Part shown: one piece after another, positions 15,427 through 18,514 of the stretch | How positions within the stretch are numbered: position 1 is the first letter of the stretch | Layout: every line of letters begins with the position of its first letter | DNA from: a virus | Taxonomy: Duplodnaviria > Heunggongvirae > Uroviricota > Caudoviricetes | Length of the DNA: 19,693 nucleotides | Virus record (IMG/VR): IMGVR_UViG_2654587571_000007 | Reading direction: 5' to 3' (one strand) | The notes under the pieces: model-generated | What the model was told of the DNA's origin: nothing | Seen by the model: only the letters and a program-made list of their open reading frames with translations | The model's database searches: none | Program-made: the position numbers and the translations under genes

Positions 15427-16932
15427 TCATGGCATAGCCATGAGCATTTTCACGTCCGCATCACCGTCTGCTGACGTCTGTGGCACGCCACCCTGTACCG
15501 CTGCCGGTGAATGGTTCGCCATGATGCGTTCAAACAGGGCGGTTGTGGATGCAGAGACCGGTTCTGCCTTACCTGATCCCGCAGCCAGCACAGCCCGGGC
15601 GCTCTCCACAGTTATTCCCGGGCAGGCAGCCAGCTGTTCAGCCTGCGCCTCAGCCCCTTTTGCCTCATCCAGTGCCATGATCTGATCACGGAGTGAGGGT
15701 CCGGCATCCGCCTGCGGTGAAGCAGCCAGGATCGGGCGGGCTTTTTCCACCGTCATCTCCGGCATCGCCGCCAGCGTTGCCGCCAGTTGTTCACGACCTT
15801 TCGCTTCTTCACACGCCATAATGCGATCGGCTTCACTCTGCGCGGATGCCACCGGCTGCTGTGGTGCCGCCGCGGCCAGAATCGCCCGGGCCTGTTCAAC
15901 GCTCATGCCCTGTTGTCCTGCCAGCATCGTGGCAAGCTGTTCACGTCCTTTCGCTTCCTGGCATGTCAGGATCCCCATCACTCGCTGGTTCTCCTGCGCG
16001 GCGGCTTCCGTTGCAGTTAATTGCGGCATAGTGCCTCCTCTGACATTACTGTTCAGCGCCGTGGCCATCACACTGATGGCATCCGACGCATTGATTAATT
16101 CATCCGCCAGCCCGGCCTCAATGCCGGACTGACCTTCAAAAACGGCGGCCTCTGTTCCCGTGACAGCATCAACAGACAGACCGGTATACATCGCTACTTT
16201 TTCAGCAAACATCCGGCGCGCCGCATCAATGCGCTGTTGCATGTCCTGGCGAACCTCTGCCGGCAACGCTTCAAACTGATTGCCATCCACCTTGTGCGCC
16301 CCTGAGTAAATCAGCGTGATATCAACACCGGCCTGCGCCAGATGACCGGCATAGCTGACATGGCTCATCATCACGCCAATGGAGCCGATACGGGATGTCT
16401 GGGTAACCAGCCGTCGGGAGCAGGCCGACGCCAGCAGCATGGCTGCAGAGCAGGCCGTGTCATTGCACAGTGCCCAGACCGGCTTCTGCTGACGGAGGCG
16501 GTAAATCATGTCAGCGCAGTCAAACGCGCCGGCGGCCTGCCCGCCCGGACTGTCAATGTCCAGCAGTACGCCCCGCACCTGGCTATCCGCCATTGCCTGC
16601 TGAAGACAGGCGACAATGCCGTCATAGCCTGTCATTCCGGAAAATGGCCGCATACCCCCCAGCCGGTGCACCAGCGTGCCGGTCACCGGCAGTACAGCAA
16701 TACCGTTCACCACCCGGTAAACACGGGCCGGTCGTTTACCTCCGGCCATGTACTCGTCCGTTTCAGCCAGCATTCCGGGAGCATCAAACTGTACCTGCTG
16801 TTGTGGTACCGAAAGACTTGATGCCCCCATCTCGCGCCCGAGCGCGCAAAAGAAAACCCGCGCATAGGCGGGCTCCAGAAGCAGCGGTTCATTGAATGCT
16901 GCGGCAATAATGTGTGAAAGATTACGTCTCAC
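15427..16932 (-). CDS. C: Capsid assembly protease C (S49-like) with C-terminal scaffold (Nu3-equivalent) region carrying an amplified repeat
   Basis: 501-aa ORF (lambda gpC 439 aa as I recall). N-terminal half ...AFNEPLLLEPAYARVFFCAL..., ...LLDIDSPGG..., ...KVDGNQFEALPAEVRQDMQQRIDAARRMFAEKVAMYTGLS... matches the lambda C protease domain. C-terminal third holds three to four tandem copies of an EEAKGREQLA...ARAILAA-type module. Overlaps the B stop by 11 nt. Confidence 0.9.
   Translation of the reverse strand: MRRNLSHIIAAAFNEPLLLEPAYARVFFCALGREMGASSLSVPQQQVQFDAPGMLAETDEYMAGGKRPARVYRVVNGIAVLPVTGTLVHRLGGMRPFSGMTGYDGIVACLQQAMADSQVRGVLLDIDSPGGQAAGAFDCADMIYRLRQQKPVWALCNDTACSAAMLLASACSRRLVTQTSRIGSIGVMMSHVSYAGHLAQAGVDITLIYSGAHKVDGNQFEALPAEVRQDMQQRIDAARRMFAEKVAMYTGLSVDAVTGTEAAVFEGQSGIEAGLADELINASDAISVMATALNSNVRGGTMPQLTATEAAAQENQRVMGILTCQEAKGREQLATMLAGQQGMSVEQARAILAAAAPQQPVASAQSEADRIMACEEAKGREQLAATLAAMPEMTVEKARPILAASPQADAGPSLRDQIMALDEAKGAEAQAEQLAACPGITVESARAVLAAGSGKAEPVSASTTALFERIMANHSPAAVQGGVPQTSADGDADVKMLMAMP
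15514..15984 (-). repeat. Tandem in-frame coding repeats (~150 bp, ~50 aa unit, about 3.3 copies) in the scaffold part of C
   Basis: Protein-level periodicity: RVMGILTCQEAKGREQLATMLAGQQGMSVEQARAILAAA (from residue 317), RIMACEEAKGREQLAATLAAMPEMTVEKARPILAAS (370), QIMALDEAKGAEAQAEQLAACPGITVESARAVLAAG (417), ERIMAN (469). Matching imperfect DNA repeats are visible by eye. Confidence 0.7.
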
Positions 16933-18514
16933 GTGGTGTTGTCTCCTCTTCCGGCCTGCGACTCTCCGCTATCTGCTGCTCATACGCCTGCGCTATCCAC
17001 ACCGGACGTGAGAGTCCGGCTTTTTGTCGCTCAGCAGATTCCCTGACCTGCTGGCGGAAAATGTCCTGATAATCCTCGCCCATCAGCGCCAGCTCTTTCT
17101 CATACGTGCTCAGTCCGGCCTCAATGCGCATCACTGATTCCTGGACTTCCTTGAGCCCGTCAATGGCCATTCTTCCGGCTCCAATCCACTCAGCCCGTGA
17201 CCAGGCTGATCGCGCCTGATAAAAATCAAAACGCGCCCGTGGCGGACGAATAATCCCCCGAAGAAGTGCCTCTTCCAGCCAGCAGGAAAACATCTGCGTG
17301 GCCAGCCGGGACGCAATAAATTTTCGTCGTCCCATAAAATAGCGCCACGACTCATTGGCGGAGGCGCGGGCACTTGAATAACTGACCTTCGAGTAATCCC
17401 GGGACAACTGTTCGTAGGAAACGCCAAGACCGGCGGCGATATACCGCAGCAGCGCCTGTTCAAGCGCCGAAAATCCATTGTCTGAATCCTGCGCAGTCTG
17501 CAGTTTCAGATCATCACCGGGGAAAAGGTGCGGAATTTTGACACCGCCCAGCGTCACGTTATTCGTGTCATACCAGGTGGAGAACTTATCCAGAATATTA
17601 ATAAGCGGATTATCCTTCTGCCCCTGCGGCGCACCGGCGATATATTCAAAGGCCTTTTCGGTATCAAGTTCACTTTCAATCGTCGCTGCATACATGGCTT
17701 TCACAATGGCCGACTGAAGCTGTGTTGCCTGCAGGGAATCCAGCATCTTCAGCCGTTCCATGACGCTGTAAAACTGATTAGCCCCACGGGTCTGCCCGTC
17801 CTCCACCGGCTCGAAAATATGCAGCATGGCCGGACGCCCGGTGGGTAGTTCACGCGGGATCCGTTCCCATCGTCCACTACCAGAGAACGGAAAATCATCC
17901 TCACAGATATGGTACGCAACGGCACGGCCATATCGATCGACCTCCACCCCGGCCCGCAGAAAACGGTTCCCCATACCGTGTCCTGGCGTGTCCACCCGTT
18001 TCGGACTCACGGCTTTAAAACGCGTACGAAACAGTTGCGTGCTCTCCGTATCCCAGACCGGCTGCACAAAGATTTCGCCGTTAAACGCATGAACGCCCAC
18101 ACCTTCACGAATAAATTCCGTAAACGTGCGTTTCTCTTCCACGTCGATCTCGCCAGACATCCCTTCGGCGTATTCCGACCAGGCCGCCTCCACCTCATCG
18201 ACAAAACTTTTTGCCGCAGTCTCCCGCATCCCCAGCCAGCGCCAGTTCGGACGGTAGCTGATCAGAAACATATGCCCGACAATATGATCCTTATGCAGGG
18301 CCACCGCATTGGCCGCTATCCCGTTATTGCGCACCAGATCATCTGCCCGGGCATTCCCCAGACGCAACGCAGGCAGCAGGGCTGCATCGGCACTCTGCGC
18401 CGGTGGCAACCACTCCGCCATTTGCCCGCCAAATCCTGCGCCGCCCCCGTTGTAGCTGAGACTCTCACGAAGCGGAACGCCGTTCACATCAATCAGGACA
18501 GGCGTTCGTTTCAT
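16922..18514 (-). CDS. B: Portal protein B
   Basis: 530-aa ORF (lambda gpB 533 aa); MKRTPVLIDVNGVPLRESLSYNGGGAGFGGQMAEWLPPAQSADAALLP... matches lambda gpB from memory; overlaps the W stop by 4 nt. Confidence 0.95.
   Translation of the reverse strand: MKRTPVLIDVNGVPLRESLSYNGGGAGFGGQMAEWLPPAQSADAALLPALRLGNARADDLVRNNGIAANAVALHKDHIVGHMFLISYRPNWRWLGMRETAAKSFVDEVEAAWSEYAEGMSGEIDVEEKRTFTEFIREGVGVHAFNGEIFVQPVWDTESTQLFRTRFKAVSPKRVDTPGHGMGNRFLRAGVEVDRYGRAVAYHICEDDFPFSGSGRWERIPRELPTGRPAMLHIFEPVEDGQTRGANQFYSVMERLKMLDSLQATQLQSAIVKAMYAATIESELDTEKAFEYIAGAPQGQKDNPLINILDKFSTWYDTNNVTLGGVKIPHLFPGDDLKLQTAQDSDNGFSALEQALLRYIAAGLGVSYEQLSRDYSKVSYSSARASANESWRYFMGRRKFIASRLATQMFSCWLEEALLRGIIRPPRARFDFYQARSAWSRAEWIGAGRMAIDGLKEVQESVMRIEAGLSTYEKELALMGEDYQDIFRQQVRESAERQKAGLSRPVWIAQAYEQQIAESRRPEEETTPRET

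Follow-up and report, generated by a model that had tools for sequence, protein, structure and literature searches.

Three tandem units in the nested scaffold region of a phage-21-type head protease gene and their natural copy-number alleles

Introduction

Scaffold proteins decide whether phage heads assemble correctly, and to our knowledge the binding part of the lambda-type scaffolds is still undefined. The stretch studied here comprises 19,693 nucleotides (nt) of a Caudoviricetes virus record (IMGVR_UViG_2654587571_000007; hereafter the window, to which all coordinates refer, amino acid (aa) numbering being that of its C protein). It carries a gene of the lambda C type whose last third was said, in an original prediction made from the letters alone, to hold a unit of about 50 aa repeated about 3.3 times. 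This raises the question of whether part of the scaffold has really been amplified, how old such an amplification is and what the units may do for the head. The gene concerned is:

15427..16932, minus strand: gene C, homologue of phage 21 gene 5; GTG start, 501 aa plus stop

We find three units, whose triplication is old and corresponds to repeats annotated in phage 21 decades ago. The kind of system is therefore left unchanged by our findings; what is added is a predicted three-helix fold of the unit, its single-unit ancestral state, the age of the triplication and the natural alleles that differ in copy number.

Three units repeated at the protein level

Scanning the C protein against itself along diagonals (BLOSUM62, 30-aa window) gave scores of 94, 79 and 73 at offsets of 50, 47 and 97, respectively. 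Over 300 shuffles the best diagonal had a mean of 30 and a standard deviation of 4-5, with a maximum of 46 for the whole protein and of 65 for aa 301-501 alone. The periodicity is thus significant, lying beyond the shuffle maximum, and it resolves into three in-frame tandem units of about 45 aa (aa 313-357, 367-407 and 414-457), joined by short linkers rich in Pro, Gln, Ala and Ser:

15862..15996, minus strand: unit 1, aa 313-357, QENQRVMGILTCQEAKGREQLATMLAGQQGMSVEQARAILAAAAP; contains the 'Tri1 box' of phage 21 (15859-15962); profile score 74.8 bits
15712..15834, minus strand: unit 2, aa 367-407, EADRIMACEEAKGREQLAATLAAMPEMTVEKARPILAASPQ; contains the 'Tri box' (15712-15822); profile score 83.2 bits
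15562..15693, minus strand: unit 3, aa 414-457, LRDQIMALDEAKGAEAQAEQLAACPGITVESARAVLAAGSGKAE; contains the 'Tri3 box' (15568-15681); profile score 70.9 bits

A search of the protein with a profile of the unit returned exactly three domains (aa 312-359, 365-409 and 413-456) with 71-83 bits each. Also, the PHROG family of lambda Nu3 (phrog_8399, profile length 131) matches the protein in three stretches (E=4e-35). On the strength of these stretches and of an alignment with lambda-type C, for which the 439-aa protein of phage HK630 was used, the C-terminal region of the window protein is taken to be homologous to lambda Nu3. The repeat was therefore correctly assigned to the Nu3-equivalent part of C, and the span first given for it (15514-15984, aa 317-473) does cover it.

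The additional 0.3 copy did not hold up. It would correspond to a fourth unit beginning at ALFERIMANH (aa 465-), for which no profile match was found and the diagonal score is 22, within noise. This segment belongs to the tail of the protein:

15430..15561, minus strand: C-terminal tail, aa 458-501, about 44 aa; motif ALFERIM at 15520-15540; ends in KMLMAMP

The motif has the form h-[DE]-x-h-M and also follows the single unit in many distant relatives, the lambda version being ALDRLM. A partial fourth unit was therefore rejected in favour of a tail motif common to the single-copy relatives, lambda included. Among diverse relatives, a short C-terminal tail invariably comes after the unit; in protease fusions with a single copy, the median length that follows the profile match is about 50 aa.

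Conservation within the unit is high at I, EAKGRE, A, LA, PGMT, A and LAAAP. In unit 3 of the window the motif reads EAKGAE (aa 427, window 15652-15654), whereas 112 of 117 diverse units have Arg at this position, as does unit 3 in the relatives from Salmonella and Providencia (EAKGRE). No curated family for the unit was found in Pfam or NCBIfam. Its pattern LA..PGhT...A..hL resembles the helix-hairpin-helix motif, and a sub-threshold match to that family (PF00633, 16.0 bits against a cutoff of 24, E=0.011) covers aa 427-450 only, so membership is unsupported.

At the DNA level the repeat is nearly invisible. Tandem Repeats Finder reported no tandem repeat in the region, and a DNA repeat search gave only matches of 12-17 nt lying 141-156 nt apart, which rules out a DNA-level tandem repeat. 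Units compared with each other are identical at 55-65% of nucleotides and 47-58% of amino acids, yet at only 36-39% of third codon positions. With the DNA repeat so faint and the third positions so diverged, we read the repeat as an old coding duplication kept at the protein level.

It may be asked whether the periodicity merely reflects the composition of an Ala-, Gln- and Glu-rich tail, or a repeat serving the DNA itself, such as regulatory sites. The region is indeed rich in Ala, and two TTGY-N6-TTGY patterns, annotated as CII sites in the phage 21 record OL657228, lie inside it. However, shuffles of aa 301-501 that keep the composition reach 65 at most as against 73-94, every unit scores 71-83 bits, homologous modules number 782 across phage proteins, identity between units is low in the DNA and lowest at third positions, the tandem repeat search was blank, and the CII pattern occurs within chance (2 found in the window as against 3.5 expected). 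Such an artefact, to which we give hardly any chance, is refuted by the shuffles, the profile matches, the homologues and the identity by codon position.

A nested scaffold gene beginning at M302

The product of C is a prohead protease with a C-terminal scaffold region, as judged from the open reading frame, Pfam and the comparison with phage 21. An S49 (SppA-like) domain is present towards the N-terminus, its Pfam score of 121.6 bits lying far above the cutoff of 24.9; NCBIfam gives an SppA domain match (E=1.1e-31) and phrog_53, 'head maturation protease', matches with E=6e-228. The features relevant here are:

16054..16497, minus strand: S49 peptidase domain, aa 146-293; Pfam PF01343 (Peptidase_S49), E=3.7e-35
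16034..16038, minus strand: GGAGG Shine-Dalgarno sequence of an in-frame internal start, within gtcagaGGAGGcactATG
15427..16029, minus strand: nested gene of the Nu3-equivalent scaffold, homologue of phage 21 gene 6; M302 to stop, 200 aa

The internal start, which the original prediction had held impossible to place by eye, can be placed at the ATG of M302 (16027-16029), four bases after the GGAGG. The lambda-type C has AGGAGG-N4-ATG (AGGAGGgcgaATG) at its own internal start, which leads to the 131-aa Nu3 and aligns with M302. In phage 21 the same position is the start of the annotated gene 6, or 'scaffolding protein' coding sequence, and a ribosome-binding site is annotated at the equivalent site in both M81255 and OL657228. 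One reading frame would therefore encode two proteins, a full-length S49 head protease and a 200-aa Nu3 equivalent predicted to be expressed from M302; the latter would act as the scaffold and be cleared by the protease. In the HK630 record (L001 2200-2805) nu3 is annotated as 201 aa from C residue 239, where no upstream Shine-Dalgarno sequence is present; the AGGAGG-N4-ATG at C residue 309 gives the 131-aa product, so annotation of the nested gene is inconsistent between records.

Correspondence with the Tri boxes of phage 21

GenBank record M81255 ("Bacteriophage 21 head gene operon") lists gene 5 and, nested in it, gene 6, for which a separate ribosome-binding site is given; within gene 6 it marks three repeat regions named "Tri1 box", "Tri box" and "Tri3 box", which the record notes as "function unknown; putative". 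These map onto the three units of the window, the peptides differing at 0, 2 and 1 positions, respectively. The triplication is therefore real and already on record. In the complete phage 21 genome of 2022 the two genes appear as "capsid protease/scaffolding protein" and "scaffolding protein" (PMC9119081). Among phage records searched with blastn, 19 match over the whole of the 751-nt region, phage 21 being one of them at 98.0% identity, and all 19 of these isolated phages (including phage 21, ev017 and D2) carry the three-unit form. The C gene of phage D2 (OM475427.1, L002 1486-3003) is a mosaic, its first ~110 residues being identical to the lambda type and the rest, with three units, being of the phage 21 type; this places a recombination junction inside the protease domain.

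Single-unit relatives and age of the triplication

Alignment with HK630 C showed one unit and a tail motif in the lambda type as opposed to three units in the window, as had been predicted for lambda. The excess of about 60 aa that had been put down to the amplification needs correction in part. Two extra units do add 97 aa, but the net gain is 62 aa since lambda C has a 36-aa linker before its unit which the window protein lacks, the remainder being a few small indels.

To place the count in a wider set, 1.84 billion representative proteins were searched with a profile made from ten units, which gave 782 matches with E of at most 0.001. Among the 145 top-listed matches that were re-scanned, a single unit was seen in 129 and two or three units in 16, most of the latter being enteric relatives of the window protein. 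Those with one unit are either protease fusions of ~400-550 aa or stand-alone proteins of ~130 aa. Therefore one unit is the ancestral and usual state and three an amplification; lambda and most distant relatives do not share the copy number of the window. Four stand-alone proteins (P0224, P0312, P0314 and P0344) carry two diverged units and look like separate duplications. One further three-unit homologue, P0343 (258 aa), shows Ala to Val, Pro to Leu and Thr to Ile or Met changes throughout, and looks less like a real variant than like the product of translating DNA with extensive C-to-T conversion, as in deaminated or bisulfite-like reads.

In a neighbour-joining tree of the units, the single unit of the lambda type is joined by unit 1 of all multi-unit proteins, and the extra units form a group of their own. 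For units 2 and 3, each unit of the E. coli type groups with its positional counterpart in the Salmonella type (P0030). Four units are present in P0031, a more diverged lineage of E. coli, the last three of them grouping together, and a prophage relative in Providencia alcalifaciens, 58% identical, has three. Mean pairwise identity over four diverged three-unit lineages was as follows:

Units: unit 1, 0.74; unit 2, 0.59; unit 3, 0.56
Linkers: linker 1, 0.30; linker 2, 0.26; linker 3, 0.12
Tail: motif, 0.31; remainder, 0.21

As the units are far better conserved than the linkers, each unit is constrained, in an architecture of beads on a string. A recent amplification in the window prophage is ruled out by the divergence at third positions, by the positional grouping across E. 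coli and Salmonella and by the three units in Providencia. The amplification that had been claimed thus stands relative to the single-copy ancestral state, but not as a recent event; the triplication is old and the norm in its own lineage.

Copy-number alleles in close relatives

The suggestion that copy number may vary between related prophages is borne out among near-identical prophages of E. coli. Full-length relatives of at least 82% identity fall into these length classes:

451/452 aa: 2 units
472 aa: about 2.5 units, second half of unit 2 kept
482 aa: about 2.5 units, unit 2 truncated
501 aa: 3 units, the form of the window
551 aa: 4 units
657 aa: a larger duplication, single sequence

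The 451-aa allele is explained by a crossover inside the stretch GAAGCGAAAGG...CGTGAACA shared between units, the 482-aa allele by a 57-nt deletion between CTGGCGGC and CTGGCTGC, and the 551-aa allele by a duplication joined at ATGAC(N)G. Since the breakpoints fall in sequence common to the units, recombination between units is indicated. Taken with the age of the triplication, this shows that the extra units arose by an old tandem duplication, after which recombination between units has repeatedly removed or added units.

The surroundings of these alleles are nearly unchanged. For a two-unit allele (L004), both the adjoining capsid protein and the first 300 residues of C, through the protease domain, are 100% identical to those of the window, and the 482- and 551-aa alleles adjoin capsid proteins that are 97-98% identical to it. 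In complete E. coli genomes (5426), the intact unit-2 segment was found in 1804 (2836 places), the 482-type junction in 577 (597 places, with adjoining head genes that look intact) and the 451-type junction in at most 4, where the matches are partial and may be variants of unit 2. All alleles seen among the 120 best full-length relatives keep at least two intact units.

Some of the longer forms need care. The four-unit sequence L006 (GCA_900537015.1, 4001-5656) has an ambiguous N at the equivalent position of both duplicated copies (ATGACNG), so this 551-aa allele calls for confirmation at read level; a second 551-aa cluster (P0092) lies on another contig. P0090 (657 aa) has a duplicated stretch of 156 aa that starts at the end of the protease region and extends to include unit 3. 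In P0174 and P0175 (577 aa) and in P0169 (721 aa) the similarity stops directly behind unit 3 (…AVLAAGSG), where unrelated sequence resembling a tail fibre takes over. All four are likely to be rearranged prophages or assembly errors.

Predicted fold of the unit

Each unit is predicted to form a small three-helix bundle. AlphaFold2, run on aa 302-365, which include unit 1, with an alignment of 57 sequences, gave a mean predicted local distance difference test (pLDDT) score of 85.4 and a predicted template modelling (pTM) score of 0.64, with helices at aa 307-322, 331-338 and 345-354. A structure prediction of the repeat had been proposed as a check, and it agrees with a discrete unit of three helices. 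In a single-sequence model of the 200-aa scaffold (pTM 0.30) the units are helical and the linkers are of low confidence, hence there is no sign of the units packing together. The best Foldseek matches among viral models were the C-termini of other phage S49 prohead proteases (query template modelling score, TMq, 0.74-0.81; probability 1.00), with E-values of only 5.5e-3 to 0.22. No natural homologue of the unit was found in the PDB by phmmer and two profile searches; the best profile matches there are de novo designed helical repeat proteins that have only the loop-plus-helix-cap pattern in common with it. PDB chain 9hqv_Un (24 residues, among them AKGREALAEK) was rejected, its match having E=1.5 and disappearing with a broader profile.

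Head genes around C

The neighbouring genes are:

16922..18514, minus strand: portal gene, homologue of lambda B and phage 21 gene 4; open reading frame of 530 aa
15043..15390, minus strand: head decoration gene, homologue of lambda D and phage 21 shp; open reading frame of 115 aa
13957..14985, minus strand: major capsid gene, homologue of lambda E and phage 21 gene 7; open reading frame of 342 aa

The portal gene overlaps the start of C by 11 nt, and its product is 98% identical to portals that carry Pfam Phage_portal_2 in related loci. Also in related loci, Pfam assigns HDPD to the decoration gene and Phage_cap_E to the capsid gene; the capsid protein of the window is 60% identical to the lambda-type E. 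The order portal, C, decoration and capsid is that of lambda B-C-D-E, and is the same in the Pfam-labelled related loci and in the annotated phage 21. As regards the TTGY-N6-TTGY patterns, the window has only two matches (15777-15790 and 16011-16024, plus strand), both of them antisense inside the Nu3-equivalent gene and one adjoining the internal start codon; OL657228 annotates both as CII binding sites. No convincing -10 element was seen by eye after these sites.

Proposed role of the units

The locus is a nested C/Nu3 pair of the phage 21 type. The best overall explanation, and one we hold to be rather probable, is that its Tri units are interaction modules of the scaffold. The unit is likely to be a multivalent interaction domain common to protease and scaffold. 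Each unit may fold, possibly only when bound, into its small three-helix bundle, and this bundle would be the protein-protein interaction module of the scaffold. The units would hold the scaffold to the inner side of the assembling shell, to other scaffold molecules or to both, and the protease would be held likewise via the C-terminus common to C and the nested product. Since both products contain the unit, protease and scaffold would be brought together by it as they assemble inside the shell. With three units on flexible linkers the scaffold would be multivalent, of higher avidity and longer reach, and after assembly the protease would degrade it, as in lambda. The conserved position of the unit and the constraint on each unit are counted in support, and interactions of lambda Nu3 with E, with itself, with C and with B have been described from yeast two-hybrid and earlier work (PMC3224144).

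Several points weigh against this explanation. Of the conserved residues, the majority (the EAKG turn, the PGMT loop and the Ala, Leu and Ile positions) look structural and unlike a binding surface. Alleles of 2, 2.5 and 4 units occur beside capsid proteins of 97-100% identity, so valency may matter little, and the E. coli lineage has lost from its third unit the Arg that is nearly invariant elsewhere. In lambda, a similar head is built with a single unit. Lambda E is about as long as the 342-aa capsid protein of the window, and the idea that the scaffold is longer because the capsid is larger was rejected on the basis of this protein and of the 42.9-54 kb genomes of the carrier phages. The lambda genome has 48.5 kb. 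As the genome of phage 21 is smaller than this (42.9 kb; PMC9119081), the extra units are not tied to a larger head. Also, the title of Medina et al. 2011 (J Mol Biol 412:723, cited in PMC9295703) calls lambda Nu3 intrinsically disordered, so the predicted fold may be marginal or may form only on binding.

Some of these points would suit extra copies that are neutral padding, where one unit suffices, as in lambda, and units 2 and 3 fluctuate through unequal recombination. Alleles of 2, about 2.5, 3 and 4 units do lie on head gene sets that are identical or 97-98% identical, the 482-aa allele with its truncated unit 2 is common among complete E. coli genomes with head genes that look intact, and unit 3 of the window is without its Arg. 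On the other hand, units 2 and 3 from E. coli prophages group with those from Salmonella prophages position by position, and three units are present in Providencia too; the identities of 0.59 and 0.56 for units 2 and 3 compare with 0.12-0.30 for the linkers; between units the synonymous sites have diverged almost to saturation while the protein has kept its sequence; the three-unit form is that of all 19 isolated phages; and none of the 120 best full-length relatives falls below two intact ones. Padding, the main rival, is weakened by this long-term conservation of units 2 and 3, and we regard it as unlikely, though of some weight.

Somewhat less likely still is a division of labour in which the units drive self-association of the scaffold, or recruit portal or protease to an initiator, and the tail is the element that binds the capsid. 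The element that binds the capsid in P22 and herpesviruses is located at the very C-terminal end, and in most relatives a tail with the recurring h-[DE]-x-h-M motif comes after the unit. The Nu3-Nu3, Nu3-C and Nu3-B interactions reported for lambda (PMC3224144) would fit as well. However, the tail is poorly conserved among the three-unit lineages (0.31 for the motif, 0.21 for the remainder), and the present data do not separate the possible partners.

Going beyond the preferred explanation of the units as interaction modules of a nested scaffold, we tentatively propose that the Tri units act independently as three-helix modules binding capsid or scaffold, and that their number sets the valency of the scaffold, an extension that we find doubtful. 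If true, the alleles with 2, 2.5, 3 and 4 units on identical or nearly identical capsid genes would be a ready-made valency series, which could show how the valency or reach of the scaffold controls procapsid nucleation, fidelity and loading of the protease. On this view the very common 482-aa allele would represent not a defect but a form of reduced valency that is tolerated or adaptive. In any case the natural alleles of 2 to 4 units offer a cheap test of whether scaffold valency matters.

More broadly, one small helical module is the conserved core of lambda-type scaffolds across hundreds of phage lineages (782 matches), and phage 21 with its prophage relatives, a common enteric lineage, has long carried it in triplicate; about a third of the complete E. 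coli genomes carry the three-unit form. For annotation, such genes labelled 'S49 family peptidase' contain a nested 200-aa scaffold gene that most pipelines leave uncalled, and the 451-, 482-, 501- and 551-aa length classes represent repeat-number alleles and not different genes.

Comparison with known systems

Among the closest systems are the tandem three-helix-bundle binding modules of bacterial surface proteins, namely staphylococcal protein A, the GA module and the Ebh/Embp repeats. With the C-terminal helix-turn-helix coat-binding domain of P22 gp8 the likeness is a functional analogy only; no sequence or fold match to that solved domain was found. Like the Nu3 unit, the gp8 element is small, helical and near the C-terminus of the scaffold, and it is thought to attach the scaffold to the shell. 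Lambda C/Nu3 shares much more with the window: the S49 domain, about 62% identity over aa 1-300, the position after the portal gene, an internal start of Shine-Dalgarno-N4-ATG form, one homologous unit, the tail motif and a C-terminus common to protease and scaffold. It differs in having one unit in place of three, a Nu3 of 131 aa in place of 200 aa and a capsid protein that is only 60% identical. The nearest system is phage 21 itself, whose gp5 is equal in length to the window C and identical at 492 of the 501 residues (nine substitutions, six of them in the Nu3 region), with 111 of 115 residues identical between shp and the decoration protein and 334 of 342 between gp7 and the capsid protein. 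As against phage 21, the copy in the window is a prophage allele.

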